From NCBI GenBank assembly GCA_037144015.1, contig JBAWXQ010000001.1, positions 1 to 48,161 of the forward strand: DNA of 48,161 bases, given 5' to 3'. Numbering within the stretch: the first letter of the stretch is position 1; each line of letters begins with the position of its first letter. Source of the stretch: a bacterium (lineage in GTDB: Bacteria; Verrucomicrobiota; Kiritimatiellia; RFP12; CAIWXQ01). Below the pieces are notes generated by a model that saw only the letters and a program-made list of their open reading frames with translations, did no database searches and had not been told where the DNA came from. A program made the translations under genes and the position numbers. This document shows, piece by piece, positions 546 through 37,752 of this stretch.

Positions 546-3500
546 ATGCCAGCCAAAGAGGACAAAATCCCTGATGCAAGTCCGGCGCCGTCGCCGGACT
601 TGCACAGGCGGCTGCGCCGCCGGCTCTGGTTGCTTCTCGCGCTGCTGGCGGCGGTGGGTGCGGCTACGGCTACGGCGCCGACCGGCTGGCTGCCGCGCCT
701 GGCCAACGCCCTGATCTGCGAGTATCTGCGCGTGCGGGACCTCTCCGCCATCCAGGTGCGTGTGGAACGGCTGACCCCCTGGCATTTGCGTGCCGCGCTC
801 CAGTTCGGCACCAACGATCCGGTTTCGCGGATCGAGCGCCTCGAGGCCCGCTTCTCTCCGGGGAGCTTGTGGCGGCATGGCGTTGCGCAGGTGGATGTCG
901 ACGGCGGCCTGCTGCAGTTCCGCACAGCGCCCGGCGGCGTGAGCGTCTGCGGCCTGCCGTCCGGCCTGCGGCGCCTGTCTCCCGGCACGTCGCCGCTCGC
1001 GGACGAGGACGATGTCCCGGTGCGGTGGCAGGTGGGGAAATTGCTGCTGGACAATGTCACCCTGCGCCTGCTGCCCCCGGAGGCCGGCGCCGCGCCGTTT
1101 GACATCTGCCTGCACGCCTCGGCTGTGACCGACCCGCAGGGCGAGACCCGCTTTGCCATCTCGGACTACGGCCGCGCCGGCACGCTGGCCAACGGCGCTT
1201 TCCGGTTCGAGACCGGCGACGGCTGGCTCGTGGCCGTGCTGCCGGAAAGCCAGGTGCAGGAGTGGCTGCGCGTGGCCCAGTGGTTCATGACGAACCCGCG
1301 ATTCCAGGGGAGCGACCTGTGCGCCGGGAACGGCGGCGCCACGCTGCTGGCCCGCATGGAGCAGTGGCGGCCGGCGCTGGTGCAGGGCGATCTCTCGCTG
1401 CGCGCCGCCACGCTGCTCCAGGACTGCAGCTTCACGTACGATCTGCGCCTGCACGGCGTGGCGCAGTGGGAAATGGCGGACAGCCTGCGCCCCACCATCA
1501 CGGCCAACGCGCAAGTCGGTCTGCGCATGGCTTCCTTTCCGGCTTTTGCCTGGTCGGATGACCACGAGCAGCCGGCCAGCGCCAGCGTGGCCGTCAAGCT
1601 GACGCCGCGCAAGGCCGAATGGGAGTGTCAGGTGGCGGCACGCGGGGCGTTGTCGCACGAGGCGGCGCAGGTCAGCGTGCCGACCGGTTCCGTGCAATTG
1701 CCGGAAGCCCCGGTCTTCCGGATCGATGGCGTGTTCACCAGCCCGGACCTGGCGACGTGGGATGGCGCTATCGAGGCCATGGCCATTGTGCCGCAGCCAC
1801 GGCTGCCGGCCGGGGACATGGCGCTGGCCTGCCGCGACCTGGTGGTTCAGGCCACGGCCACGGTGACCCACTCGCAGCCCGCGGTCGTGCGCGGACGTGT
1901 CGATCTTTCCGGGGTTTCGTGCGCCGGCCGCGGCATCCGGCTGGCCGGGGATGCGGGTGTGTCGTTCGGGTCAAGCGCCCCGTTTCAGTGTGCGAACGTG
2001 GCGGTCACGGCCGGCGTGGCGTCGCTGACCCTCCCCGCGGGGGCGGTTTCGTTCGACAAGGATGAACCCCTGCGGATGATCGCATCCGCAACATTGGCGC
2101 GCGCTCCGGACGGACGGGTTTCCGTCTGCGCGGCGGAGCTGAATGTGGCGCCGCAGCAGATGATCACGGGAAATACGCGGCTGGGGCTGCCTGACGGGCT
2201 GCAGTTACGGATGCGCCGCAGCGGAGAGAATCCGGACGGCATGACCGTGGAACTGCTGCCCGCTCCGGTCGCCGGGCAATCCGGCACCGGCATGGCGGCC
2301 ACGGCCTGGGTTTCCGCCGCCGCGTTTGTCGGCCGGCAAAGGAGCAGCACCGTCTCCTGTGGCGATATGACCCTGCGCGTGACGAATGTGCTGTTTCGTG
2401 CCGCTGAGCTGACCGGCGGCGTGGCCAGCGCGGATGTGACTGTGAGTAACGATAAAGCCGGCGGGCTGGCCTCCCGGTCCGCGCCTCGCATCCGCGCGGA
2501 GATTTCAGGTGCCTGGCTGCGCGGCAGGAATGGACTGCAGCTCGATGGGTTGCAGGCGCTGCTGCCGCTGGAATGCGTGGACCGTGAGATTCGCGTGGCC
2601 GGCCTGCCCGGACTGACGTGGCGCAACCTCGAATGCCAGGGCGTGCACCTGGTTCCGGAAGGGTTTGCACTGTCGCTGACCGGGCAGACGGCCGCGGTGC
2701 AGATGTCGGTTGGCGTGCTGGAGGCGAACCTGCATGCCAGCCTTGGCGTGTATGCGGACTGGAGCCGCGCGTGGCAGGTGGCGGTGACCGCGGAGGTGCC
2801 GCCCAGCACGCTGGCTGACACCGAGGCGCTGCGCGGCATGATCTGGCGGCTGGCAGACATGGACCTGGTCGTCACGGGGCAGGTTGCGGCCACGGTGAGC
2901 GCCCTGCTGGCAAAGGATCTGCCGCCAAGCGTAAAAGTGTCCGCCGCTGTCGGGAACCTCGATGTCGGGTGCCTGTCTGGAAAGTGGCAGGTGTCCGGAT
3001 TGTCCGCCGGCCTGACGGCGGATGGCCCGCGCGCCTGGCGCACGCCGCAGGGGCAGGTGTTGACGTTCCGCTCGGCCCGGTCCGGCGACCTGGCTCTTGA
3101 TGGCGGCGCACTGCGCTGGCAGTACCGGCGCGAGGCGCTGCTGGTGGAGCAGGCGGACGTCAACTGGTGCGGCGGCTCACTGCACGCCTTTGGCGTGCCG
3201 TACGACCCGCGCGAACAGCGGCTGGAGACGGTGCTGTACGCCGAGCGGATCGAGCTGGGGCGCCTGATGGCGCAGACCCGGATGCTGCAGGGCTCGGGCG
3301 CGGGGCGGCTGTACGGGCGCCTCCCGCTGACGCTCGACAAGGGGAAGGTGAAGCTGTCGGAGAGCTACCTCTATTCGACGCCCGGCGAGACGGGAAGCCT
3401 CAAGCTTTCCAACACCGCCCCGATCGAGCTGGCCATGGAGCAGGGGAGCATCGATGCCGCCACCCGGCAAAAGGTGAGCGCAGCCCTGCAGAATATGCAA

Positions 3501-3680
3501 TACTCCCTGTTCCGGATGGATCTTTCCGGCGGCGGCGCCAACGCGTCCCTGGGAATTCAAATCGAGGGGCGCGCGGCGGAGGACGCGGCTGCGCCGCCCG
3601 TGCATCTCAACGTGAACCTGGGCGGTTCACTGGATGAGTTCTTTAATTTTGGCATGGACCTGTCACGAAAGCTGCGCTAG
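546..3680 (+). CDS. ydbH: AsmA-like intermembrane phospholipid transport protein, YdbH family (1044 aa)
   Basis: N-terminal TM anchor (LWLLLALLAAVGAA). C-terminal region resembles the YdbH/DctA-YdbH family (GRLYGRLPLTLDKGKVKLSESYLYSTPGETGSLKL). Followed by ynbE- and ydbL-like genes as in the E. coli ydbH-ynbE-ydbL operon. Confidence 0.75.
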   Translation: MPAKEDKIPDASPAPSPDLHRRLRRRLWLLLALLAAVGAATATAPTGWLPRLANALICEYLRVRDLSAIQVRVERLTPWHLRAALQFGTNDPVSRIERLEARFSPGSLWRHGVAQVDVDGGLLQFRTAPGGVSVCGLPSGLRRLSPGTSPLADEDDVPVRWQVGKLLLDNVTLRLLPPEAGAAPFDICLHASAVTDPQGETRFAISDYGRAGTLANGAFRFETGDGWLVAVLPESQVQEWLRVAQWFMTNPRFQGSDLCAGNGGATLLARMEQWRPALVQGDLSLRAATLLQDCSFTYDLRLHGVAQWEMADSLRPTITANAQVGLRMASFPAFAWSDDHEQPASASVAVKLTPRKAEWECQVAARGALSHEAAQVSVPTGSVQLPEAPVFRIDGVFTSPDLATWDGAIEAMAIVPQPRLPAGDMALACRDLVVQATATVTHSQPAVVRGRVDLSGVSCAGRGIRLAGDAGVSFGSSAPFQCANVAVTAGVASLTLPAGAVSFDKDEPLRMIASATLARAPDGRVSVCAAELNVAPQQMITGNTRLGLPDGLQLRMRRSGENPDGMTVELLPAPVAGQSGTGMAATAWVSAAAFVGRQRSSTVSCGDMTLRVTNVLFRAAELTGGVASADVTVSNDKAGGLASRSAPRIRAEISGAWLRGRNGLQLDGLQALLPLECVDREIRVAGLPGLTWRNLECQGVHLVPEGFALSLTGQTAAVQMSVGVLEANLHASLGVYADWSRAWQVAVTAEVPPSTLADTEALRGMIWRLADMDLVVTGQVAATVSALLAKDLPPSVKVSAAVGNLDVGCLSGKWQVSGLSAGLTADGPRAWRTPQGQVLTFRSARSGDLALDGGALRWQYRREALLVEQADVNWCGGSLHAFGVPYDPREQRLETVLYAERIELGRLMAQTRMLQGSGAGRLYGRLPLTLDKGKVKLSESYLYSTPGETGSLKLSNTAPIELAMEQGSIDAATRQKVSAALQNMQYSLFRMDLSGGGANASLGIQIEGRAAEDAAAPPVHLNVNLGGSLDEFFNFGMDLSRKLR

Positions 3681-3737
3681 CAGCTAGTCGGGCTTAGCCT
3701 TTTCGCTGCACAAACTTTTTGCCGACAAAGCTGCTAG
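3677..3737 (+). repeat. Family-P palindromic element, copy P1 (61 bp, CTAG at both ends)
   Basis: CTAGCAGCTAGTCGGGCTTAGCC...TGCCGACAAAGCTGCTAG. Arms pair 9+5 bp. First CTAG contains the ydbH TAG stop. Confidence 0.9.
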
Positions 3738-3975: not shown

Positions 3976-4350
3976 ATGAATTACAAGCGAATGATGCTGG
4001 TGGCCGTGACGTTCCTGGGGCTGGCGCTGGCGGCGCAGGCGCAGGGGCTGGATGCGGTGAAGCAGAGCATGCTTGCCCGCAAGCCTGCAGTGGCGCAGCT
4101 GCTGGCGAGCAAGACCGTCGGCGAGAACCGCGACGGTCTGCTGGAGGCGACCGCCAAGGTTGCGGACGCCGACGCGAAGACCGTCGCGGCGGAGAATGCG
4201 GACCGCAAGGCCGTCTACGCGGCGATTGCCGCCAAGAACGGTACGGACGTCGCCAAGGTCGGCCAGTTGCGCGCGGCCGAGATTGCGGCCAGGGCCGAGG
4301 CCGGGACCCTGATCCAGGGCAGGGACGGCACGTGGGCCGGGAAAAAGTAG
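3976..4350 (+). CDS. ydbL: YdbL-like periplasmic protein (DUF1318 family)
   Basis: Signal peptide MLVAVTFLGLALAAQA. ENADRKAVYAAIAAKNGTDVAKVGQLRAAEIAARAEAGTLIQGRDGTW is collinear with E. coli YdbL. GGGAGA SD. Confidence 0.8.
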   Translation: MNYKRMMLVAVTFLGLALAAQAQGLDAVKQSMLARKPAVAQLLASKTVGENRDGLLEATAKVADADAKTVAAENADRKAVYAAIAAKNGTDVAKVGQLRAAEIAARAEAGTLIQGRDGTWAGKK

Positions 4351-4362
4351 CCGGGTCGCGGG

Positions 4363-4401
4363 TCTCTTTCTCTGTGGCCTTTGTGTCCTTCCACTTGGAT
4401 G
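4363..4401 (+). repeat. K-family fragment K1 (right arm only)
   Basis: TCTCTTTCTCTGTGGCCTTTGTGTCCTTCCACTTGGATG matches the right ends of K2 (12925-12961) and K3 (34889-34933). Confidence 0.85.
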
Positions 4402-4406
4402 ATTCC

Positions 4407-5883: not shown

Positions 5884-6000
5884 GTGATCGGTGATCGGTT
5901 GCCAGTGATTGGTAACGGGTAACCGGTGATCGGCGAATGGATCACTGCTCACGGTAACCGATCACCGATCACCGATTACTGATTACTGAGTACCGATCAC
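5884..6000. repeat. Inverted arrays of tandem heptamers: TGATCGG-type units (5885-5947) facing CCGATCA-type units (5958-5999)
   Basis: Left block reads TGATCGG TGATCGG TTGCCAG TGATTGG TAACGGG TAACCGG TGATCGG CGAATGG. Right block reads CCGATCA CCGATCA CCGATTA CTGATTA CTGAGTA CCGATCA. The blocks are mutually complementary. Confidence 0.9.
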
Positions 6001-7411: not shown

Positions 7412-8091
7412 ATATGACGATCCGGATCGCCGGCATGCTCGCCGCATGCTTCTTCCTGCTGTCGGAATTGCAGGCGCAGGAAACCGCCGCGGTGTCGCCC
7501 ACCGGAGGTGTGTCTGTCGCCGCACCTGCCGCCGCACCTGCTGCTGCACCTGTCGCCGTACCTGTCGCCGCACCTGCTGCTGTACCTGTCGCCGCACCTG
7601 TCGCCGCACCTGCGACCACAGGAAAAGTTCATGCGGCCAAGCAGCCGAAAAGCGGCGCCCCCGCTTTTTTCAACCTGTCGGACGGGTCGTCAACCAACGG
7701 CATGACGATCACCTTCGACCGCCTGGAGTTCGACTACAAGGACATGGTCGCGGCCTACGACGGGCATGTGCGCGTTTTGGATTCGCGCTATGACATGATC
7801 TGTGATCGTCTGTTGGTTTTCCTGGAGGGGACCAACCAGATCAAGCAGATCATGGCCATGGGGAATGTGGTCATTACCCAGCCGGACCGGCGGGCAACCT
7901 GCAACCGGGCTGTCTATCAGCGCGCGTCCGAGCAGGTGGAGATGACCGGAAACCCCGTGGTGACCCAGGGTGGAAACCGGCTGGTGGGTGCCAAGATTCG
8001 CATCTGGCTGAATGACCAGCGTGCCGAAGTGGAATCCGGCCGCATGAACCTGGCGACCGAAACCATGAAAAACCGGGAAAGCAAGCCGTGA
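7408..8091 (+). CDS. lptA: LPS transport periplasmic protein LptA (OstA-like), with Ala-Pro-rich linker
   Basis: Signal peptide. OstA-like body ITFDRLEFDYKDMVAAYDGHVRV...ATCNRAVYQRASEQVEMTGNPVVTQGGNRLVGAKIRIWL. GTG at 7408 or ATG at 7414. 4-nt overlaps with both neighbours. Confidence 0.7.
   Translation: MNMTIRIAGMLAACFFLLSELQAQETAAVSPTGGVSVAAPAAAPAAAPVAVPVAAPAAVPVAAPVAAPATTGKVHAAKQPKSGAPAFFNLSDGSSTNGMTITFDRLEFDYKDMVAAYDGHVRVLDSRYDMICDRLLVFLEGTNQIKQIMAMGNVVITQPDRRATCNRAVYQRASEQVEMTGNPVVTQGGNRLVGAKIRIWLNDQRAEVESGRMNLATETMKNRESKP
7519..7614 (+). repeat. In-frame tandem repeat: eight 12-nt units (GCCGCACCTGYY), organised as two 36-nt super-units (7531-7566, 7567-7602)
   Basis: The two 36-mers differ at 2 positions. 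Encodes (A-A/V-P-A/V)n in LptA. Confidence 0.9.
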
Positions 8092-8846
8092 CAGATGCGG
8101 ATCAGACCGCGCGGGATGTTGCCCCGGCCGACCTGGAGGCTGTCGACCTGGTCAAGCAGTACCGGGGGCGGGCCGTAGTCAACGGCGTGTCGCTGCGCGT
8201 GCGCTGCGGCGAGATTGTCGGGCTGCTGGGGCCGAACGGCGCCGGGAAAACCACCAGCTTCTACATGGTGGTTGGTCTGGTGCGTCCCAACAGCGGCACG
8301 ATTATCTACCGCGGCCAGAACATCTCCCGTCTGCCGGTCTTCCGGCGCGCCCGCATGGGGCTGGGGTACCTGGCGCAGGAGGCTTCCGTTTTCCGCAAGC
8401 TCACCGTGGAGGAGAATCTGCTGGCCATCCTCGAGACCCTTTCGCTCTCGGCGGCACAGCGGCGCGCCCGCCTGGAAGAGCTGCTGGCGCAGCTTTCGCT
8501 GACCCGGGTGGCCCGGCAGCGCGCCTACACGCTCAGTGGCGGCGAGCGGCGCAAGCTGGAGATTGCCCGCGCCCTGGTGCGGCGTCCGGCCATCCTGATG
8601 CTGGACGAGCCGTTCAGCGGCGTGGACCCGCTGGCGGTGAATGACATCCAGGAGATTATCAAAGGGTTGCGCAGCCGCGGGCTGGGCATCATCGTGACCG
8701 ACCACAACGTGCGTGAGACGCTGGCCATCGTGGACCGGGCCTACCTGGTCTACGAGGGCAAGGTGCTGCGCGAGGGAACCAGCGAATTTCTGATCAACGA
8801 CCCCACCGCCCGGGAGCTGTATCTCGGGCGCAGTTTTCGCATGTGA
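8088..8846 (+). CDS. lptB: LPS export ABC transporter ATP-binding protein LptB
   Basis: Walker A GPNGAGKTT, signature LSGGERRKLEIARAL, Walker B ILMLDEPFSGVDP, and LptB-type C-terminus ARELYLGRSF. Confidence 0.95.
   Translation: MTDADQTARDVAPADLEAVDLVKQYRGRAVVNGVSLRVRCGEIVGLLGPNGAGKTTSFYMVVGLVRPNSGTIIYRGQNISRLPVFRRARMGLGYLAQEASVFRKLTVEENLLAILETLSLSAAQRRARLEELLAQLSLTRVARQRAYTLSGGERRKLEIARALVRRPAILMLDEPFSGVDPLAVNDIQEIIKGLRSRGLGIIVTDHNVRETLAIVDRAYLVYEGKVLREGTSEFLINDPTARELYLGRSFRM

Positions 8847-9693: not shown

Positions 9694-9704
<11 letters not shown>
9408..9704 (+). CDS. ptsH: Phosphocarrier protein HPr / NPr (98 aa)
   Basis: Active-site context NRYGMHVRPAG (His) and GKSIMALMTL (Ser46-type). 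GGAGAG SD. The track ORF from 9231 is an extension. Confidence 0.85.
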
Positions 9705-11477
<1,773 letters not shown>

Positions 11478-11481
<4 letters not shown>

Positions 11482-11537
11482 CAGCTTGTCGGATTTAGCG
11501 CTTACCTTTACAAACTTTGTGCCGACCAAACTGCTAG
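11478..11537 (+). repeat. Family-P palindromic element, copy P2 (60 bp)
   Basis: CTAGCAGCTTGTCGGATTTAGCG...CAAACTTTGTGCCGACCAAACTGCTAG. First CTAG contains the ptsI TAG stop. Confidence 0.9.
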
Positions 11538-11598
11538 TTTTGGGGACGCAACCGCCAAGCGCCGGACAACAGTGTCATGCGCTACCAAAAGAGTAACC
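11538..11598 (+). repeat. G-module extension shared by P2 and P4
   Basis: TTTTGGGGACGCAACCGCCAAGCGCCGGACAACAGTG...CAAAAGAG aligns with 30542-30605. Confidence 0.8.
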
Positions 11599-11681: not shown

Positions 11682-12746
11682 TCACCTGGCATCCAGCTGC
11701 CGCAGCATTTCCACGACGACCTGCCCCACGGCGGTCAGGCTGGTGGCGGAAAGTTTGTCCAGCGTGTCGTCGGGCGTGTGCCAGTAGTCGTGCCGCCCGG
11801 GGGCGCTGCCGTAGACGAAGTCAATCAGGTCCACCGCCGGGAATCCGGCGTCGAGAAACGCCTGGTGGTCATCGAGGATCCGCCGGTCGGCGAGGCGGAA
11901 GCTGTTGCGAACGCCGGCTGTTTTCGCCGCCTCCAGTGCCAGGAGCGTCAGGTGCAGGGTGCCGTTGTCCGGCAGCGTGATGGAGAGGTCGCGGTCGCCG
12001 ACCATGTCCAGCAGGATCACGGCGCGGATGTGCCGTTTTCCCGCCGCGAGCTGTGCGGCGAGCCGGTGGCTGCCATGGAATCCGTCGCGCGGGCCGTACT
12101 GCACGCGGCACTCTTCGCCGTCGAGAAAGCCGAACAGCACGTGGCACTGGCGCAGCGGCGTGCTGCCAAGCACCCGGGCAAGCTCCAGCAGCAGGCCGGT
12201 GGACGATCCGCCGTCGTTCGCGCCGACAAAATTGGTGCTGATGCCGCTCTTGGTGTCGAAGTGCGAGAGCAGCACGATGCAACCGCCCGGCGTTTCCACA
12301 GGTGGCCCGTGCGCTCCGCGCGCGGGCAAGTGACGGGACTGCTGCAGGTCGTGTGCGCTGCCCGTGCGCGGAGCGCCCGGGCCACCTTCCGTACGCGGCA
12401 GAATAGTGGCCAGCACGTTGCGGCAGACGAGGGGGCCGGCGGGGGTCTCGTTGGTAAAGGTGTCGATGCCCGCGGCGAGACCGTGGCGCTGCAGTTCGGC
12501 AGCCAGCCACTGCGCGGTGCGCGCGGCGCCGGGCGTGCCGGCATCGCGCGGCCCCAGCGTGCAAAGAGCGGCCACGCGCGCCAGGGCGTTGGAGCCGTTG
12601 GCGGCGGTGAAGGGAATTGCGGCGGAAAGCATCGCGGGTGCCCGGGAAACCGGCGCCGGGTCACAGGCGCATGTCAGGGCGATGAGGCAGGCGACGGTGC
12701 CGCCCAGGCGAATCACAGAATATCGAATATCGGGCCGCAGACGCAT
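11682..12746 (-). CDS. M28 family metallopeptidase (aminopeptidase / glutaminyl-cyclase-like), probably secreted
   Basis: NDGGSSTGLLLELARVL, FLDGEE, LLDMVGDRD and YWHTPDDTLDKL metal-ligand motifs. Start taken at MRLRPD because the upstream part of the track ORF runs through repeat K2. Confidence 0.8.
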   Translation of the reverse strand: MRLRPDIRYSVIRLGGTVACLIALTCACDPAPVSRAPAMLSAAIPFTAANGSNALARVAALCTLGPRDAGTPGAARTAQWLAAELQRHGLAAGIDTFTNETPAGPLVCRNVLATILPRTEGGPGAPRTGSAHDLQQSRHLPARGAHGPPVETPGGCIVLLSHFDTKSGISTNFVGANDGGSSTGLLLELARVLGSTPLRQCHVLFGFLDGEECRVQYGPRDGFHGSHRLAAQLAAGKRHIRAVILLDMVGDRDLSITLPDNGTLHLTLLALEAAKTAGVRNSFRLADRRILDDHQAFLDAGFPAVDLIDFVYGSAPGRHDYWHTPDDTLDKLSATSLTAVGQVVVEMLRQLDAR

Positions 12747-12783: not shown

Positions 12784-13006
12784 AAGGCGGGCGTCAGCCC
12801 GCAACCCGACAATTGCACAACTCGAGGACACTGAGAGCACCAAGAGTAACAGAGATCACAGAGAAATTCCCGACTGCGGCCGGCGATTCGGCCGCAGCAG
12901 TATGAATTCTCTCTGTGCTCTCTATCTTTCTCTGTGACCTCTGTGTCCTTCCACTTGGATGCCCAACATACACGCAAAAACGTGTATGTTGACTGGAAAG
13001 GTGCTA
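12784..13006 (+). repeat. K-family composite element, full copy K2 (~223 bp)
   Basis: Left hairpin GCGGGC-GTCA-GCCCGC. Imperfect palindrome of CACAGAG/CTCTGTG arms around CTGCGGCCG-GCGATT-CGGCCGCAG. Right hairpin ACATACACG-N6-CGTGTATGT. Alignable by eye over its full length with 34756-34981. Confidence 0.9.
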
Positions 13007-14005
13007 ATCGACTTCGACGCCCAGGAGCCCGAGCAGCCGGTCAAGGTCGTCGTTGTCGTAGAAGTCGATCTCGATGCGCCCCTTGCTGCGCTTGCCGTTG
13101 GCGTGGGTCATGCTGGGGGTGAGCCGCACGGACGTGCTGAACCGGCTGTGGAGCCGGTCGGACAGATGCTTGAGATGGCTGTCCGGAATGTCGGCCTGGG
13201 GGCCGCGCTTGTCGCTGCTGCGCGCCTGCTGGCGGCGCTGGAGCAGCCGCTCGAGGGCGCGGACCGTGAGGCCGTCGGTCACGCACTTGCGGGAAAGGAG
13301 CACCTGCTCCTTGGCCTCCGCCACGCCGAGCAGCACCTTGGCATGGCCGGAGCTGAGAAGCGTGGCTCCGATCAGCTGCTTGACCTCGTCCGGGAGCTCC
13401 AGCAGACGCATCGCATTGGCCACGCTGGCGCGGGCCTTGCCCACGCGGTCAGCCACATCCTGCTGGGTCAGGCCGAACTTCTCCGCCAGCGTGCGGTAGC
13501 CCTCCGCTTCCTCGATGGCGTTGAGGTCTTCGCGCTGGATGTTTTCGATGATGGCCATCTCGGCCGCGTCGCGGTCCGCCGCCTCGATCAGGATCACCGG
13601 AACCTGCCCCAGGCCGGCCAGCATGGCGGCGCGCAGGCGGCGCTCGCCCGCGATCAGTTCATAGCCGCCGGCCGCGCCGCGCCGGCAAATGAGCGGCTGG
13701 ATCACGCCGTGGGTCTTGATGGAGTCGGTCAGGTCCTTGAGCGCAGCCTCGTCAAACGTCTGCCGCGGCTGCCAGGTGCTGCGGCTGATGTCGGCCACAG
13801 GGAGCAGCGCCACATGGCGCCCGTCGGCGCGCGGCGCAGCCGGGTGCGTGCCGGCTGCCGGTGCGGACGCTGCCGCCTCTTTGCCGTCCAGGCCCGCGGG
13901 AACGCTGTCCCGGGTCGGTTCTGCGGGGTGCTGGCCGATCAGTGCGCCCAGGCCGCGGCCCAGGCCGGGACGCGGACGGTTGTTTTTCTTGGACGTGGTG
14001 CTCAT
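13004..14005 (-). CDS. parB: Chromosome partitioning protein ParB/Spo0J
   Basis: GLGRGLGALI, GVIQPLI, ELIAGERRLRAA (CTP-binding arginine patch), IIENIQREDL and HTH LTQQDVADRVGKARASVANAMRLL. Confidence 0.9.
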   Translation of the reverse strand: MSTTSKKNNRPRPGLGRGLGALIGQHPAEPTRDSVPAGLDGKEAAASAPAAGTHPAAPRADGRHVALLPVADISRSTWQPRQTFDEAALKDLTDSIKTHGVIQPLICRRGAAGGYELIAGERRLRAAMLAGLGQVPVILIEAADRDAAEMAIIENIQREDLNAIEEAEGYRTLAEKFGLTQQDVADRVGKARASVANAMRLLELPDEVKQLIGATLLSSGHAKVLLGVAEAKEQVLLSRKCVTDGLTVRALERLLQRRQQARSSDKRGPQADIPDSHLKHLSDRLHSRFSTSVRLTPSMTHANGKRSKGRIEIDFYDNDDLDRLLGLLGVEVD

Positions 14006-16984: not shown

Positions 16985-17563
16985 ATGCACAAGCCCAATC
17001 CCAAACGGATCGAGAAGCTTGTACGGCAACTCCTCGTCGAACTGGGAGAAGATCCGCAGCGCGAAGGGTTGCGCGACACGCCGCAGCGCGTGGCCCGCTC
17101 CTATGAGTTCCTGACCAGCGGCTACCGCCAGTCTCCCCGCCACGTGGTCAACGAGGCGATCTTCGAGTCGCACGCGAACAACATGATCATCGTGCGCGAC
17201 ATCGAGGTTTATTCCCTTTGCGAGCACCACCTGCTGCCCTTCTACGGCCGGTGCCACGTGGGCTACGTGGCGGAGGACAAGGTTGTCGGCGTCAGCAAGA
17301 TTGCGCGGCTCGTGGATTGCTTCGCGCGCCGGTTGCAGGTGCAGGAGCGCCTCACCGAACAGGTGGCCGAGGCGGTCATGACGATGGCCGGTGCCGAAGG
17401 CGTCGGTGTGGTCATGGAATGCCGTCACCTGTGCATGATGATGCGCGGCGTGCAGAAGCAGAACTCCGTGATGACGACATCCTCCGTGCTCGGCAGTTTC
17501 CGCCGCCGCGGCACCACGCGCGCCGAGTTTCTCAGCCTGATCAATGCGCCGTTCCGCGGGTAA
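16985..17563 (+). CDS. folE: GTP cyclohydrolase I
   Basis: [30 protein letters not shown] and QVQERLT motifs. Confidence 0.95.
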
Positions 17564-17624
17564 GCTTCGTGCTGTTTCAGTCCGGGCAACCGGAGTGCGG
17601 CCGGGCGGAAAAGGAAACACGCAC

Positions 17625-18512
17625 ATGAAGCCCGCCCCCGTGCATACCACCGTCGGCTTCATCGGCACCGGCGTCATGGGGCGATCCATGGCCGGGCATC
17701 TGCTGGATGCCGGGCATCACCTGCTGGTCTATAACCGGTCCCGTGACAAGGCCGGCGACCTGCTCCGGCGCGGTGCCGTGTGGTGCGACACGCCCGCCGC
17801 CCTGGCCGCCGGATGCGATGTGGTGTTCACCATCGTCGGGTTTCCCGCGGATGTGGCGGAGGTCTACCTCGGCGGGCACGGGCTGGTGGCGCATGCCCGG
17901 CCGGGCGCCGTCCTGGTCGACATGACCACCTCCAGCCCGTCCCAGGCAGAGCAGATTGCGGCCGCGGCCGCGGCGCGCGGCGTCTTCGCGCTGGATGCGC
18001 CGGTCACCGGCGGTGACAAGGGCGCACGCGAGGCCACGCTGGCCATTCTGGTTGGCGGTGACCCGGCGGCTTTTGCGCACGTGCGGCCGCTGCTGGCGCT
18101 CATGGGAAAAACGATCGTGCACCTGGGCGCGGCCGGCTGCGGCCAGCACGCGAAGCTGGCCAACCAGATCGCCATTGCCGGCACGATTCAGGGCGTGTGC
18201 GAGGCGCTGGCCTATGCGCAGGGCATGGGGCTCGATACCGCCAGGCTGCTGGATGCGATCGACAGCGGCGCGGCCGGCAGCTGGCAGCTGCGCAACGTCG
18301 GCCCCAAGATGCTGAGCGGCGACTTCGCCCCGGGCTTTTTCGTGAAGCATTTTGTCAAGGACATGACCCTGGCCCTGGATGCGGCGAGCCGCGCCGGCAT
18401 CGAACTGCCGGCGCTGAAGCTCGCGCGGGATCGCTACGCCGAGTTGGCCACCGCCGGCGGGGCGGAACTCGGCACGCAGGGGATTTTTCGCGAATACGAC
18501 GAAAAATCCTAG
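17625..18512 (+). CDS. NAD(P)-dependent oxidoreductase, 3-hydroxyisobutyrate/2-hydroxy-3-oxopropionate reductase family
   Basis: Rossmann VGFIGTGVMGRSMAGHL. DAPVTGGDKGAREATLAILVGG. KLANQIAIAG. KDMTLALD. Start at the ATG at 17625 after AAGGAAA. Confidence 0.85.
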   Translation: MKPAPVHTTVGFIGTGVMGRSMAGHLLDAGHHLLVYNRSRDKAGDLLRRGAVWCDTPAALAAGCDVVFTIVGFPADVAEVYLGGHGLVAHARPGAVLVDMTTSSPSQAEQIAAAAAARGVFALDAPVTGGDKGAREATLAILVGGDPAAFAHVRPLLALMGKTIVHLGAAGCGQHAKLANQIAIAGTIQGVCEALAYAQGMGLDTARLLDAIDSGAAGSWQLRNVGPKMLSGDFAPGFFVKHFVKDMTLALDAASRAGIELPALKLARDRYAELATAGGAELGTQGIFREYDEKS

Positions 18513-18569
18513 CAGCCGGGTCGGCAGACGATGGCTGTCTCCACACGGCTAAGCCCGACTGGCTGCTAG
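18509..18569 (-). repeat. Family-P palindromic element, copy P3 (61 bp, inverted relative to P1)
   Basis: The reverse complement starts CTAGCAGCCAGTCGGGCTTAGCC, 22/23 identical to P1. The left CTAG holds the plus-strand TAG at 18510-18512. The right CTAG holds the minus-strand TAG at 18568-18566. Confidence 0.9.
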
Positions 18570-18787
18570 AAGTTGATGTCGAGCTGCGTGGTCACCGTGT
18601 TGGCGCCGGCCACGGACTTTTTGTTGTAGACGTCGTAGCCGAGGATCACGGAAACGTTGGGCGTGAAGGCCCAGGCCACGCCGAAGTTGAGCGCGCCCAG
18701 GGCGTTCTTCCCGCCCTGGTAGTCCACGGCCAGCCAGAGACGGTCGTCGATCTCGCTCAGCGTGCGGTCCCAGGAGAGCAGGAACTT
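18566..18787 (-). pseudogene. Remnant of an outer-membrane porin gene (last ~73 codons only)
   Basis: Hand translation: KFLLSWDRTLSEIDDRLWLAVDYQGGKNALGALNFGVAWAFTPNVSVILGYDVYNKKSVAGANTVTTQLDINF-stop. Alternating beta-strand pattern with C-terminal Phe. An in-frame TGA lies at 18790-18788. An SD-ATG at 18791 is in another frame. Confidence 0.5.
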
Positions 18788-18810
18788 TCATTTTGCATCT
18801 CCTTTGGTCA

Positions 18811-18837
18811 TCGCGCTGCGGGGCAGCGCTCCTACAG
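18811..18837 (-). repeat. REP-like R-family unit R1 (TCGCGCTGCGGGGCAGCGCTCCTACAG)
   Basis: Core hairpin GCGCTGC-GGG-GCAGCGC. Same unit as at 29246-29275. Confidence 0.85.
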
Positions 18838-18859
18838 TTGTGAAGGGACAATGATGTGC

Positions 18860-18889
18860 CAACAAAGGTTTTCCGGAACGGAAAACCTA
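18860..18889 (-). terminator. Hairpin terminator candidate for amtB-glnK (AGGTTTTCC-GTTCC-GGAAAACCT, then TTGTTGG)
   Basis: 9-bp stem whose first two nt are the AG of the glnK TAG stop, followed by a U-rich tail. Confidence 0.55.
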
Positions 18890-27601: not shown

Positions 27602-27709
27602 CGAACCGCAGATTGACGATTGAAGAGGTTTGAATCATGAAGGAATCGTTCCGCGAATGAGGCATTACCTTCAAAAATCGGCACTGGACATTCGTCAAGC
27701 TGCGGTTCG
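27602..27709. repeat. 18-nt inverted repeat (CGAACCGCAGATTGACGA / TCGTCAAGCTGCGGTTCG, 1 mismatch) enclosing a 72-nt lower-GC spacer with nested stems
   Basis: Arms at 27602-27619 and 27692-27709. Inner pairing TGAAGG (27638)/CCTTCA (27668). Confidence 0.8.
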
Positions 27710-30294: not shown

Positions 30295-30379
30295 GCACCC
30301 GTGGTGGAATTGGCAGACACGCAAGATTCAGGTTCTTGTCCCGCAAGGGGTGGGGGTTCAACTCCCTCCGGGTGCACCA
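30295..30379 (+). tRNA. tRNA-Leu (anticodon CAG), long variable arm, CCA encoded
   Basis: Acceptor GCACCCG/CGGGTGC, anticodon stem CAAGA/TCTTG with loop TTCAGGT, variable arm TCCCGCAAGGGGT, T-loop TTCAACT. 85 nt. Confidence 0.9.
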
Positions 30380-30388
30380 GCTTAAAAA

Positions 30389-30414
30389 CGCCATCTCGTA
30401 TGGCGGTTTTTTTT
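30389..30414 (+). terminator. Rho-independent terminator after tRNA-Leu
   Basis: CGCCAT-CTCGT-ATGGCG followed by G and T8. Confidence 0.8.
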
Positions 30415-30443
30415 ATCGCCCGGGCGTTTGGCGCCGGGCCCAA

Positions 30444-30479
30444 GGCAGGCTGACGCCCGCAGTCCAACAATTGCATAAG
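30444..30479 (+). repeat. K-family left module (variant) interrupted by P4
   Basis: AAGGCAGGCTGACGCCCGCAGTCCAACAATTGCATAAG versus K2 AAGGCGGGCGTCAGCCCGCAACCCGACAATTGCACAAC. Confidence 0.75.
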
Positions 30480-30541
30480 CTAGCAGCCTGTCGGATTTAG
30501 GTTTTGCGTCTGCACACGGTTCGTGCCGACCAGGCTGCTAG
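30480..30541 (+). repeat. Family-P palindromic element, copy P4 (62 bp)
   Basis: CTAGCAGCCTGTCGGATTTAGG...GTGCCGACCAGGCTGCTAG. Not adjacent to a CDS. Confidence 0.9.
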
Positions 30542-30605
30542 TTAGTGGGACGCAACCGCCAAGCACTGGACAAGAGTGAAATACGCAACAAAAGAACAGC
30601 CGGAA
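30542..30605 (+). repeat. G-module extension (second copy)
   Basis: TTAGTGGGACGCAACCGCCAAGCACTGGACAAGAGTG...CAAAAGAAC aligns with 11538-11598. Confidence 0.8.
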
Positions 30606-30632
30606 CAATTTTTCTGTCTGTAACTGAGTCTT

Positions 30633-30847
30633 CGCAACCCGCGGGCAGCGGGTTGCACAACTAGGAGACTGTCGGCAGAAGGCCCTGGACCGATCCGAGG
30701 CCTAAGTCCGACAGCCTCCTAGGACACCGAGAGCACAGAGAGGAATAGAGGGCACAGAGGAATTCCTGTCTGCGGCCGGCTTCCCGGCCCGGGCAAGCAG
30801 AAATTGACTCTGCGCTCTCATTTGATCTCGGTGCCCTCTGTGTCCTT
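30633..30847 (+). repeat. K-family element K4 (variant) carrying nested P5
   Basis: CGCAACCCGCGGGCAGCGGGTTGCACAA-[P5]-GGACACCGAGAGCACAGAG...GGTGCCCTCTGTGTCCTT. Confidence 0.8.
30661..30722 (-). repeat. Family-P palindromic element, copy P5 (62 bp, divergent termini CTAGGAG.../...CTCCTAG), nested in K4
   Basis: CTAGGAGACTGTCGGCAGA...GGCCTAAGTCCGACAGCCTCCTAG. The interior matches the P3 orientation. Left and right terminal changes are compensatory. Confidence 0.85.
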
Positions 30848-30899
30848 GACGTCGCATGAATGAAGATGCGCCGCATTTGCATCTCGCACAACGAACAAT

Positions 30900-31574
30900 C
30901 TATTTACTGGCTGTACAGACCCAGATGCAGCAATGACGGGAGCGCGCGCCTTTGTACGTTGGTGCAGGGATGCATTGCACGCGGACCTGCTCCTGCCGCA
31001 GGCGGCGCTCGAACGCAGCATCCTGAAAGGCGGACCAGACCGCGAGGCAACCGTTTGACCGGAGCGCATCGAGGCAGGCGCGGATGCCTTGCGGGCTGTA
31101 GAGCTGCTCGTTGCGATTATCGGTAATGGCCTCGGGGCCGTTGTCAACGTCGAGCAGGATGGCATCAAACGCGCCGGGGGACTGGCGGATGACGCTGGCC
31201 ACATCTTCGACCTTGAGGACCACGCGAGGGTCCCGCAGCGGGTGATTGGCCAGGTTCCCGATGTAGTCACGGTTCCACCGGACGATCTCGGGCAGCAGCT
31301 CGGCAACGACCACCGTGGCGCGCGCTTTCAGCATGTCGAGCGATTGCCGCAGGGTGTAGCCCATGCCGAGGCCGCCGATCAGGACCCGGGGCGCGCGATG
31401 TCCGGTCAGGCGGGCGCACCCGAGGCGCGCGAGTTCTTTCTCCGACTCGTGGGCACGGCTCACCATCAGGTCGTGCTGGCCCACGGTGATGACGAAGTCA
31501 TCCTGGTGCCGGTAGAGCACCAGGCGGCTGCCGTCCGGGGCGTTGGTTGTGGCGATCTGCGTCCTGGCCTTCAC
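30900..31574 (-). CDS. Spermidine-synthase-like class I methyltransferase-fold protein
   Basis: VLIGGLGMGYTLRQ (SAM-type glycine motif), FDAILLDVDNGP and LYSPQG, typical of the spermine/spermidine synthase-like family. GTG start. Confidence 0.65.
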   Translation of the reverse strand: MKARTQIATTNAPDGSRLVLYRHQDDFVITVGQHDLMVSRAHESEKELARLGCARLTGHRAPRVLIGGLGMGYTLRQSLDMLKARATVVVAELLPEIVRWNRDYIGNLANHPLRDPRVVLKVEDVASVIRQSPGAFDAILLDVDNGPEAITDNRNEQLYSPQGIRACLDALRSNGCLAVWSAFQDAAFERRLRQEQVRVQCIPAPTYKGARSRHCCIWVCTASK

Positions 31575-31725: not shown

Positions 31726-31772
31726 AAGGACACAGAGGCCACAGAGAATGAAGGAGAGCACAGAGAGAATTT
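31726..31772 (-). repeat. K-family half copy K5 (inverted right arm)
   Basis: AAGGACACAGAGGCCACAGAGAATGAAGGAGAGCACAGAGAGAATT equals the reverse complement of the K2/K3 right arm. Confidence 0.8.
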
Positions 31773-34723: not shown

Positions 34724-34755
34724 CCTCCGCGGCACACGTGTCGCCTATGGATCGT

Positions 34756-34981
34756 AAGGCGGGCATCAGCCCGCAACCCAACGAATGAACACGTCAAGGA
34801 CACCGAGAGCACAGAGAACAACCGAGACCACAGAGAACTGCCTGTCCACGGCTGGCGAGCCGGCCGCAGCAGCATGAATTTCTCTCTGTGCTCTCTTGCT
34901 TTCTCTGTGGCCTCTGTGTCCGTCCACTTGGATGCTCCTACATAGACGCAAGAACGTGTATGTTGACCGGAAAGGAGCTAA
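34756..34981 (+). repeat. K-family composite element, full copy K3 (~226 bp)
   Basis: Same three-module layout and orientation as K2. The arms contain a duplicated 19-mer, CA(C/A)CCGAGA(G/C)CACAGAGAA. Confidence 0.9.
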
Positions 34982-35061
34982 CTAACCTCATGTGTCGCGA
35001 CCGCAATCGTGATAATCTCTGAACCCGAGTCCAGAACCCCGAACGCAGAAACATTTTTCCC

Positions 35062-37752
35062 ATGGACAAGCACTACGATCCCAAGGCCGTGGAGGCCAAA
35101 TGGTACGCCTGGTGGGAGGCGCAGGGCTTTTTTCATGCCGACCTCGCGCAGGGCGGTGAGCCGTACTGCGTGATGATCCCGCCGCCGAATGTGACCGGCA
35201 TCCTGCACATGGGCCACGCGCTCAACAACACCGTCCAGGACATCCTGGTGCGCTGGCGCCGCATGCAGGGGCGCAACACCCTCTGGATGCCGGGCACGGA
35301 CCATGCCGGCATTGCCACGCAGAACGTGGTGGAAAAGGCGCTGCGCAAGGAGGGCTCCGGGCGGCATGAACTGGGACGCGAGGCGTTTGTCGAGCGCGTC
35401 TGGTCCTGGCGCAGGGAGTACGGCGGCACGATCGTGCGCCAGCTGCGCCAGCTCGGCGCCAGCTGCGACTGGCCGCGCGAGCGCTTCACCATGGACGAGG
35501 GGATGAGCGCGGCCGTGGCCGAAGTCTTCTGCCGCCTCTACAACGAGGGGCTGATCTACCGCGGTAACTACATCGTGAACTGGTGCCCGCGCTGCCACAC
35601 CGCGCTCTCGGACGAGGAGAGCGAGCACCAGGAGACGCAGGGGAGCCTCTGGCACATCCGCTACCCCGTGTCGGACGGCACCTTTGTGACCGTGGCCACG
35701 ACGCGCCCCGAGACCCTGCTCGGCGACACGGCCGTGGCCGTCAACCCGAAGGACGAGCGCTACGCCGGCCTGCACGGCAAGACGGTCCTGCTGCCGATCC
35801 TCGGCCGCGCGCTGCGCGTGGTGGCCGACGACTACGTGGACGCCGCGTTCGGCACGGGCGTGGTGAAGATCACCCCGGCCCACGACCCCAACGATTTTCA
35901 GGTGGCGCAACGCCACGGCCTGCCGTCCCTGAACGTGATGAACGGCGACGGCACCATGAACGAGGCCGCCGGCCCGTACGCGGGCATGGACCGGTTTGCC
36001 TGCCGCAAGAAACTCGTGGCCGACCTGGAGGCCCAGGGGCTGCTGGACAGGGTCGAGCCGCACCTGCACGCCGTGGGCCACTGCTACCGCTGCGACACCG
36101 TGGTCGAGCCGCGGCTTTCGCTGCAGTGGTTTGTGCGCATGAAGCCGCTGGCCGGCGCGGCCATTGAAGCGGTCCGCGGCGGGCAGGTGCAGTTCACCCC
36201 AAAACGCTGGGAAAAGACCTACCTCGACTGGATGGAAAACATCCGCGACTGGTGCATCTCGCGCCAGATCTGGTGGGGGCACCGCATCCCGGTCTACACC
36301 TGCGGCGGCTGCCGGCACGAATGGGCCGCGCCCGCCGCGCCGGCGTCCTGCACGAAGTGCGGCGCCGGCAGCAGCGCCATCACGCAGGATCCGGACGTGC
36401 TCGACACCTGGTTCTCCTCGTGGCTCTGGCCGTTCAGCACGCTGGGGTGGCCGCAGAAAACCGCGGAGCTGGAAAAATACTACCCGTCGCACGACCTGGT
36501 GACCGCCCCGGAGATCATCTTCTTCTGGGTGGCGCGCATGATCATGGCCGGCTGCAAGTTCATGGGCGAGCCGCCGTTCCGCAACGTGTACATCCACGGC
36601 ACGGTGCGCGACGACCGCGGCCGCAAGATGAGCAAGAGCCTCGGCAACTCCATCGACCCGCTCGACATCATCGAGCAGTACAGCGCCGACGCGCTGCGCT
36701 TCAGCATGATGATGATCACGGCCACCGGCCAGGACGTCCAGGTCAACCTGGACAAGTTCGAGATCGGCCGCAACTTCGGCACCAAGATCTGGAACGCCGC
36801 GCGCTTCCTGCAGCTGCACATGGAAAAGACGGCCGGGCTCGACTGGCGCGCGCTGGCCACCGCCGCGCCGCAGCTTGATCCGGCGCGGCTCACGGATGAC
36901 GACCGCCACCTGCTGGCCAAGGGCGATGCGGCGGTGCGCCTGCTGACCGCCCACCTGGAGCAGTTCCGCTTCCAGGACGGCGCGCGCCTCCTGTACGACT
37001 TTGTCTGGAGCGACTTCTGCGACTGGTATGTCGAGTATGCCAAGGGCGACCTCTACGGCGAAGATGCCGCGCGCCGCGAGCAGGTGCTGCGCCTGATGAC
37101 GCACGTGTTTGCAAACATCCTGAAGCTGCTCCACCCCTACATGCCGTTCCTCACCGAAGAGCTCTGGCACGCCATGGGGTACGCCACGGCGGAAGAGACC
37201 ATCCTGCTGGCGCCGTGGCCGCTGTCGCTGGCAGAGGCCGCTGCGGCCGCATATGGCCTGGGCGACGCCACCACCGCCTATGTGGAGGCCAAGCACGAGC
37301 TGATTGGCGCGGGGCGCACCCTGCGCGCCGAGTACGGCATTGCTCCGGCCAAGCTGATTCGCTACGTGATCCACACCGTGGACGCGGCCACGGCGGCGCG
37401 GTTCGAGCTCGACCGGCGTCCGCTGCTGGCGCTCCTGCGCGCCGAGGCCGTGGAGATCGTCTCCGGTGGCGAGGCCTGCGGCATGCCCGGCGCGCTGGGC
37501 AAGCTCGGCACCATCTACCTGCCGCTGGCCGGCCTGATCGACGTGCCGGCCGAGGTCACGCGCGTGCGGGGAGAGCTGTCCAAGTCTCGCGGCTTCCTGC
37601 AGGGCGTCGAGTCCAAGCTGGCCAACGAATCCTTTGTCGCCAAGGCGCCGCCGCAGGTCATCGAGCAGCAGCGTGCGAAGCGGGTGGAGCTGACGGAAAC
37701 CATCGCCCGGCTGGAGCGCCTGGAGAAGACGCTGCAGGCCGTGGGATCCTAG
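35062..37752 (+). CDS. valS: Valine-tRNA ligase
   Basis: PPPNVTGILHMGHAL (HIGH), KMSKSLGN (KMSKS), the editing domain, and a C-terminal coiled coil. Confidence 0.97.
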   Translation: MDKHYDPKAVEAKWYAWWEAQGFFHADLAQGGEPYCVMIPPPNVTGILHMGHALNNTVQDILVRWRRMQGRNTLWMPGTDHAGIATQNVVEKALRKEGSGRHELGREAFVERVWSWRREYGGTIVRQLRQLGASCDWPRERFTMDEGMSAAVAEVFCRLYNEGLIYRGNYIVNWCPRCHTALSDEESEHQETQGSLWHIRYPVSDGTFVTVATTRPETLLGDTAVAVNPKDERYAGLHGKTVLLPILGRALRVVADDYVDAAFGTGVVKITPAHDPNDFQVAQRHGLPSLNVMNGDGTMNEAAGPYAGMDRFACRKKLVADLEAQGLLDRVEPHLHAVGHCYRCDTVVEPRLSLQWFVRMKPLAGAAIEAVRGGQVQFTPKRWEKTYLDWMENIRDWCISRQIWWGHRIPVYTCGGCRHEWAAPAAPASCTKCGAGSSAITQDPDVLDTWFSSWLWPFSTLGWPQKTAELEKYYPSHDLVTAPEIIFFWVARMIMAGCKFMGEPPFRNVYIHGTVRDDRGRKMSKSLGNSIDPLDIIEQYSADALRFSMMMITATGQDVQVNLDKFEIGRNFGTKIWNAARFLQLHMEKTAGLDWRALATAAPQLDPARLTDDDRHLLAKGDAAVRLLTAHLEQFRFQDGARLLYDFVWSDFCDWYVEYAKGDLYGEDAARREQVLRLMTHVFANILKLLHPYMPFLTEELWHAMGYATAEETILLAPWPLSLAEAAAAAYGLGDATTAYVEAKHELIGAGRTLRAEYGIAPAKLIRYVIHTVDAATAARFELDRRPLLALLRAEAVEIVSGGEACGMPGALGKLGTIYLPLAGLIDVPAEVTRVRGELSKSRGFLQGVESKLANESFVAKAPPQVIEQQRAKRVELTETIARLERLEKTLQAVGS

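Follow-up and report, generated by a model that had tools for sequence, protein, structure and literature searches.

A composite miniature inverted-repeat element with IS1182-type termini nested in an interspersed repeat of a Kiritimatiellia bacterium

The palindromic tetranucleotide GGCC is the reported target of ISPsy36, an insertion sequence (IS) of the IS1182 family (PMC8027508). In Pseudomonas syringae, the miniature inverted-repeat transposable element (MITE) MITEPsy1, a derivative of ISPsy2 from the IS5 family, uses CTAG or YTAA as its target, with a duplication of 4 nt (PMC3189936). Here we describe a repeat cluster downstream of a tRNA-Leu gene on contig JBAWXQ010000001.1 (assembly GCA_037144015.1) of a bacterium from the Kiritimatiellia (Verrucomicrobiota); the whole stretch of DNA that was analysed, 48,161 nt in length, is called the window. 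The cluster is an IS1182-type MITE nested in a copy of another interspersed repeat, called K, and both the kind of element and its mechanism are standard. The MITE, called the composite, carries at its two ends short hairpins of a family named P (copies P4 and P5), between which lie two modules, G and H.

The full-length elements that share the P terminus resemble the IS1182 family in being 1.5-1.66 kb long, in holding a single open reading frame (ORF) and in having a palindromic tetranucleotide at both ends. The window differs in that it has only non-coding 62- and 243-bp derivatives, the target is CTAG rather than the GGCC of ISPsy36, and the terminal 19 bp of the P lineage are conserved across many phyla in our sample. 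MITEPsy1 is likewise short and non-coding, with terminal inverted repeats and insertion at CTAG, but its inverted repeats (GGAAGGTCTGAAAAAGCC) are unrelated, its parent belongs to another IS family, and it is 100 bp long and belongs to one species group. Families of REP elements are marked by GTAG or CGTC tags and are associated with RAYT genes of the Y1/HUH type. P copies share with REP and REPIN elements their shortness, abundance, extragenic position and hairpin form, as well as frequent clustering and a place between convergent genes. However, they end in CTAG, their inverted repeats equal the ends of IS1182-type elements and no RAYT gene was seen, and we therefore do not assign them to the REP/REPIN group.

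All pieces that an initial annotation of the cluster had distinguished (a K left module, P4, the G module, a further hairpin module, P5 and the K arms) were located between 30442 and 30847, with CTAG at both ends of each P copy (Table 1). That annotation had also placed both P copies directly after the motif TTGCA(T/C)AA, which does not hold for P4; this copy follows TTGCATAA plus one extra G. No convincing gene lies in the stretch from the tRNA-Leu gene to the point where a methyltransferase-like ORF of the minus strand (30900-31574) stops, and both the composite and the P copies are non-coding, with only overlapping mechanical ORFs inside, none of meaningful length. In searches against Rfam 15, tRNAs alone reach the gathering score in the window, and the best sub-threshold match in 30380-30900 has an E value of at least 0.14. 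P4 and P5 fold as 62-nt hairpins (z = -5.25), and the K arms form an imperfect hairpin (z = -3.9) from two 39-nt arms that are 77% complementary. The final G of the right CTAG doubles as the first G of the K-arm motif GGACACC.

The outer ends of the composite form 22-bp inverted repeats (30480-30501 and 30701-30722, 86% complementary). These outer arms carry a well-conserved terminus (...GTCGGAYTTAGG), whereas in the degenerate inner arms there is a bulge, and GCAGAAGG replaces the conserved sequence. In P4, for example, the outer arm is IS-like (CTAGCAGCCTGTCGGATTTAGG) and the inner arm is a degenerate inverted copy of it with a 1-nt bulge. A hidden Markov model built from the window copies and related ones splits P into two subfamilies, Pa (CTAGCAGCC...CCAGGCTGCTAG, 61 nt) and Pb (CTAGGAGAC...CAGTCTCCTAG, 62 nt). 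P5, which had been described as a P element with divergent termini, is an ordinary member of Pb, and this subfamily is common in a related metagenome-assembled genome (MAG; isolate ELA687, JBAXVM01) and among metagenome contigs whose accessions begin with SESD or SESH.

The initial annotation took P5 to be the inserted unit, with a second K left module before it and the K arms after it. We find instead that the whole of P4-G-H-P5 recurs, as a unit of 242-245 bp, at unrelated loci of other assemblies. A BLAST comparison of the window with all fetched loci (given here by L numbers) recovers 30479-30725 as one block in L198 (84% over 248 nt), L197 (81%) and L068 (72%), and partial versions occur in L203, L142 and L160. 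Order and orientation are kept in these copies (Pa, G, H, inverted P), and unrelated flanks start just outside the outer CTAGs. The ELA687 genome holds other composites of 242-245 bp that have P hairpins at both ends and a different interior (L022, L036). Moreover, what had been called the second K left module is really the H module of the composite, which is joined to P5-type hairpins at many loci of ELA687 and of the SESD and SESH contigs where K is absent.

The extent of the insertion was assessed by reconstructing empty sites. For each candidate element, the 120-nt flanks on its left and right were joined through one CTAG, and the product was searched against all loci. The empty site rebuilt for 30480-30722 finds at least 20 intact K copies in alignments that run through the junction (for example, L141 at 85% over 166 nt and L170 at 85% over 171 nt), whereas that rebuilt for P5 alone matches only itself. 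Thus, a single composite insertion explains the cluster, and we put the probability that one 243-bp insertion into a CTAG-bearing K copy accounts for all of it at roughly 80%. The earlier proposal of a CTAG-bounded insertion into K, reversed by a deletion that leaves one CTAG, stands for the composite and fails for P5 alone. A target-site duplication is present relative to an empty site, the empty site being paralogous; when filled and empty pairs were sought among all fetched loci, self-matches alone were returned, K paralogues excepted. It had been noted in advance that P5 flanks belonging to a longer conserved unit would speak against a target duplication; they do belong to one, but on one side only.

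The intact K copies define the sequence that was interrupted. A metagenome scan for K arms returned more than 117 loci, and the K subfamily that has the left module of the window comprises 35 intact copies, with a fixed 16-nt spacer from the left-module core to GGACACC. Window positions 30721-30883 align with intact copies as well (L170 at 87%, L114 at 83%). At the position corresponding to the insertion point, 29 of the 35 copies read TCAAGG, two read TCTAGG (L141 and L156) and four, including K2, have other junctions. TCTAGG puts CTAG exactly at the insertion point, and L141 and L156 belong to a 'caattg[ct]aca[ag]gtcta' variant that is the closest to the CAATTGCATAAG of the window. Uninterrupted K copies with CTAG at this site, which the initial annotation had proposed to look for, therefore exist, but because they number only two in 35, the CTAG target is a variant and not a feature of the family.

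The termini of the P elements identify their parent transposon. A scan of one genome per species with the P hairpin pattern gave at least 89 loci, spanning Chloroflexota, Verrucomicrobiota, Planctomycetota, Acidobacteriota, several proteobacterial classes and others. CTAG forms the termini in 90 of 116 pattern matches, and nearly all of the others look like chance matches to the loose pattern. From the bases conserved beyond those that the pattern imposes, the consensus is CTAG[G/C]AG[C/T]CTGTCGGACTT...AAGTCCGACAG[G/A]CT[C/G]CTAG, with variable interiors. In a collection of viral contigs, a single-arm scan found 32 loci, in which the motif often lies about 100 nt from the contig end and faces outward, and an ORF starting MSRF.P.DR.T.YLLPPS begins 50-100 nt after it. 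Three full-length elements with CTAG on both sides and P-type termini of 18-19 nt were found, with lengths of 1538 bp (L219), 1602 bp (L224, identical to L239) and 1659 bp (L231). The 450-aa proteins of L219 and L224 pass the NCBIfam model NF033551 for the IS1182 family with 363 and 367 bits (cutoff 270), and that of L219 matches the Pfam domains DUF772, DDE_Tnp_1 and DDE_Tnp_1_6.

Because the P termini are identical to the ends of these transposase-bearing elements, we assign the P elements and the composite, by sequence comparison, to the MITEs of this IS1182-family clade. They are short and non-coding, have terminal inverted repeats, occupy many unrelated loci and share their repeats with an autonomous element, as MITEs do. 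When pairs of half-sites in the genome and metagenome loci were searched for a full-length element lying between them, only chance pairs emerged (for example, L022 2447-3623 and L073), and a BLAST search of consensus P against the PLSDB plasmids gave no match. No published description of the P terminus was found; the only match in the literature is a Geobacter sulfurreducens primer that contains GAGCCTGTCGGACTT, a string not present in the supplements of the Geobacter genome paper. An IS1182-derived MITE with a CTAG target was likewise not found in the literature. In the viral collection (L215-L246), many contigs end some 60-130 nt inside an IS1182-type terminus that faces outward, which suggests that such repeats break metagenome assemblies.

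Several observations weigh against a single insertion of an IS1182-type composite. No IS1182-type transposase was detected by tblastn in the 48-kb window or in the sampled contigs of the closest relatives, where nothing but a degenerate copy in L029 turned up, adjoining the P copy with the greatest similarity to P4; mobilisation in this lineage is therefore putative. Solo P hairpins and partial units (P-G and G-H-P) occur, so the composite could have been assembled before it spread. Compared with the TCTAGG variant, the restored K junction lacks 1 nt (AAG-CTAGG versus AAGTCTAGG). No orthologous filled and empty pair was found at the strain level: an uninserted orthologous K copy would read ...AAG(T)CTAGGACACC, a look-up of the exact DapA protein of the window returned no record, and the closest relatives by DapA are at most 88% identical and are not collinear here, their contigs holding no tRNA-Leu arrangement of this kind, no P or K copies and no orthologous empty site. 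Finally, two copies read TTAG...CTAG (L020, L036), and the duplication might be either 4 bp (CTAG) or TA.

A different history would make P4 and P5 separate 62-bp elements, each inserted alone after a K-type left module, with P5 placed between a second such module and the arms and flanked by its own CTAG duplication. Such a history is in keeping with the solo P hairpins of 60-62 bp with unique flanks in the window (3677-3737, 18509-18569) and at L029, L082 and L006, with the two 8-mers, CGCAACCC and TTGCACAA, that H and the K left module share in the same order, and with the sequence TTGCACAA-CTAG-GACACC that results when P5 and one CTAG are removed. It is at odds, however, with the joint recurrence of H-P5 and of the whole composite at K-free loci, with the finding that H replaces the left module in none of the 35 intact K copies, and with the P5-only empty site, which matches no K at all. 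We regard the model of separate insertions as largely refuted and very unlikely; H and the K left module could be distantly related, as judged from their common 8-mers, and a single composite insertion does not need them to be. Least probable of all, in our estimation, is that P elements are IS630/Tc1-type MITEs which insert at the TA of CTAG, duplicate TA only and have true ends of G...C. According to a work cited in PMC2170065, IS630 is reported to prefer TA within 5'-CTAG-3', the preferred context and the flanks after insertion look the same, and the TTAG...CTAG copies fit a TA duplication in a TTAG target. But IS630/Tc1-mariner elements use another transposase family and duplicate TA alone, every full-length element found with P termini encodes an IS1182-family transposase, and no IS630-type ORF was seen beside the termini; with autonomous partners of the IS1182 type, the P elements do not fall into the IS630/Tc1-mariner group.

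We consider it highly improbable that the P hairpins are kept for a structural role, be it as stabilizers of 3′ untranslated regions, as terminators or as REP/REPIN-like units moved by RAYT, with the changes in their arms reflecting selection on the stem. The hairpins are indeed stable (z about -5), and they stand directly after stop codons and between convergent genes. Their arms also covary: among 65 distinct arm pairs (19 nt per arm, joined by an artificial GAAA loop), 8 of 19 base pairs are changed on both sides, and there are 79 doubly changed cells compared with 34.5 +/- 4.4 after shuffling, a value that none of 500 shuffles reached; slid controls collapse. The covariation analysis that had been suggested thus shows genuine complementary changes across the family. 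In P5 itself, where the arm changes had been called complementary, this is true of position 5 (G5:C) but not of position 8, which is an A/C mismatch (left arm CTAGGAGA, reverse complement of the right arm CTAGGAGG); an A8:T pair occurs in other Pb copies. Nevertheless, the ends of the three full-length elements co-vary in the same way at position 5 although they are 1.5 kb apart, which undercuts the view that the hairpin is preserved rather than the sequence. L219 and L231 have C5...G and L224 has G5...C; no other varying position allows this comparison, and L224 has a mismatch at position 8. Co-changes between ends are expected when both must fit one transposase and when MITE subfamilies descend from different parents. 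Arm covariation is, on these comparisons, best read as a reflection of matching terminal inverted repeats and is no proof of hairpin selection. Nor does a T-run follow the stem, and the CTAG target accounts for the location of the hairpins behind stop codons. A secondary, co-opted structural role could still exist beside the transposon origin.

The distribution of CTAG accounts for much of where these IS1182-type MITEs are found. CTAG occurs only 22 times in the 48 kb of the window, far below the roughly 149 sites that base composition predicts and also below a Markov estimate of 33; half of the sites (11) belong to P termini. The left CTAGs of P1, P2, P3 and P6 supply the TAG stops of long upstream ORFs (ends 3680, 11481, 18512 and 37752), and six of the ten non-P CTAGs close open frames of at least 100 codons as well. 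Across all fetched genomes, which belong to many phyla, the terminal TAG closes an open frame of at least 100 codons in 48 of 90 CTAG-bounded elements. In a frame control with the 71 elements outside the window and ELA687, 37 are in frame compared with 9 and 22 in the shifted frames. Because CTAGs are rare and mostly stop codons, P elements sit on TAG stops and beside each other. Neighbouring elements share a single CTAG in L022, L197 and L203, an arrangement that would fit insertion into a CTAG made by an earlier insertion.

A mechanism can be proposed on this basis. An IS1182-family DDE transposase, supplied in trans, would bind the two outer repeats of the composite, which would insert at CTAG by a staggered cut. 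Repair of the cut would duplicate the target, either the 4 bp of CTAG or the central TA if the ends are G...C, with both alternatives giving the same sequence. The duplication would regenerate the stop codon, and the family would pile up at gene ends on scarce C-TAG stops. Each insertion would add one CTAG beside an existing element, so that adjacent and nested copies would be favoured.

We advance with some reserve a broader proposal, to which we give somewhat less than an even chance. P and its parent IS1182 elements may constitute a CTAG-specific lineage that in effect homes to C-TAG stops and restores the stop, and that builds self-extending nested arrays at the 3′ ends of genes without breaking them, its terminus of about 19 bp being near-invariant across at least eight phyla. 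If this is true, the lineage would represent a little-described but widespread 'safe-harbour' strategy of a bacterial transposon. The association with stop codons shows how a transposon that is strict about its target can be led to harmless sites when that tetranucleotide is depleted. What looked like a 'nested repeat grammar' reduces to a simple history, namely one MITE that entered one repeat copy, with IS1182 as the likely enzyme family. Current concepts of transposition are unchanged, and the wider interest is limited to the broad distribution of the terminus and its association with stop codons. The terminus CTAG[C/G]AG[C/T]CTGTCGGACTT is usable as an annotation signature for these elements and their parent IS in many phyla.

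Table 1. Coordinates of the repeat cluster, its parts and related repeats in the window.
Feature	Position	Strand	Remarks
tRNA-Leu(CAG)	30295-30379	+	ARAGORN, Rfam; context, outside the element
K left module	30442-30479	+	core AAGGCAGGCTGACGCCCGCAGTCCAA + CAATTGCATAAG; 5′ part of split K; matches 35 intact K copies
Composite MITE P4-G-H-P5	30480-30722	+	243 bp; unit inserted into K
Left CTAG	30480-30483		one copy of the duplicated target
Right CTAG	30719-30722		second copy of the duplicated target
P4	30480-30541	+	subfamily Pa; left terminal hairpin of composite
G module and linker	30542-30633	+	composite interior
H module	30634-30660	+	hairpin GCAACCCGC-GGGCA-GCGGGTTGC + ACAA; 9-bp stem
P5	30661-30722	-	subfamily Pb (CTAGGAGAC...GTCTCCTAG type); right terminal hairpin, orientation opposite to P4
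K arms	30722-30845	+	124-nt imperfect hairpin of CACAGAG-like 9-10-mers; central GC hairpin
K right tail	30848-30897	+	GACGTCGCATGAATGAAGATGCGCCGCATTTGCATC... type
P1	3677-3737	+	solo P hairpin; left CTAG is the TAG stop of ORF 546-3680
P2 + G module	11478-11589	+	truncated composite (P2 at 11478-11537); left CTAG is the stop of ORF 9694-11481
P3	18509-18569	-	solo P between convergent reading frames
P6	37749-37791	+	truncated P, left arm only; CTAG is the stop of valyl-tRNA synthetase (ValRS)-like ORF 35062-37752
K2	12784-13007	+	intact K; junction CTCGAGG
K3	34756-34981	+	intact K; junction GTCAAGG

Five places in the window match the P pattern, with none expected from shuffled sequences, and a truncated sixth copy starts at 37749. 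Dozens of copies are present in ELA687 and in other genomes. In the standard orientation, the left flanks of P are unique, and the right flank nearly always belongs to a small set of recurrent modules, H and G among them. The G module recurs after P2 at 11538-11589 (81% identity), and tails of the type 'GGAAACCCGCCGCC', related to G, follow P copies in ELA687. At L141, a K copy is followed on its right (about 8560-8668) by a G-like module (GGAAACCCGCCGCCAAGCGCCGGAAAACAGTGTAATACGCAACC) that adjoins the K end with no P hairpin; G-type sequence thus exists outside the composite too. Both terminal CTAGs of P3 supply TAG stops, one to ORF 17544-18512 on the plus strand and the other to a minus-strand frame that ends in TTQLDINF. 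This minus-strand frame (18566-18889) has about 74 residues after an in-frame stop, with GYDVYNKKSVAGANTVTTQLDINF as its last residues. Its product resembles what is left of the C-terminal part of a beta-barrel outer-membrane protein, and the frame may be a pseudogene.

K is a modular repeat. In L095, a syntenic relative, the stop of the aspartate kinase gene and the start of the ValRS gene abut (TAAATG; 3540-3600), whereas in the window a 338-bp spacer (34724-35061) that holds K3 separates them, and K3 is therefore an insertion relative to that genome. The left module (AAGGCGGGCGTCAGCCCGCAACCCAA) precedes quite different bodies in some loci (window 12784-13007 and 34756-34981; L102, L108, L171, L173 and others). 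The arms take either of two right tails, one consisting of TTCCACTTGGATGC, a hairpin ACATACACG...CGTGTATGT and TTGAC..GGAAAGG.GCTAA, the other being of the GATGCGACGCATATGCATCGCATG hairpin type. In the window, partial or solo copies of the arms lie at 4347-4402 and 31726-31772; one is a right arm with a TTCCACTTGGATG tail and the other is an inverted single arm that is 91% complementary to K2 and K3.

The K arms (30722-30845, 12826-12948 and 34798-34921; L098-L214, L247-L315) belong to a very widespread superfamily of inverted arrays, each built from a 9-mer of the type NNCACAGAG that is present three or four times (CCACAGAG GACACAGAG AGCACAGAG). Single K-type arrays are located directly upstream of ORFs in more than 60 viral contigs. 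The K-type array looks like a protein-binding array. The arms may correspond to the 'class 2 global regulator sites' of Geobacter (TCTCCGTS[Y] x3, paired), a comparison made by description only. Like those sites, the K arms repeat a 9-10-mer, here of the CTCTGTG/CACAGAG type, three or four times in inverted arrays at a variable distance, and some metagenome copies read CTCCGTG.

Other repeats occur nearby. At 5891-6000 of the window, a further hairpin repeat consists of tandem heptamers in inverted arrays (GTGATCG / GGTAACG type), with a K-like architecture and a different unit, and L095 has a similar array (GGTCATTG) after its ValRS stop codon (about 780-880). At 7502-7633, a 12-nt unit (CTGTCGCCGCAC and variants) is repeated about ten times in tandem and probably encodes a tetrapeptide repeat inside an ORF. 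Three further long inverted repeats are present at 70-214 (41-nt arms, 88% complementary), 12300-12387 (29-nt arms, 93%) and 27602-27709 (42-nt arms, 71%).

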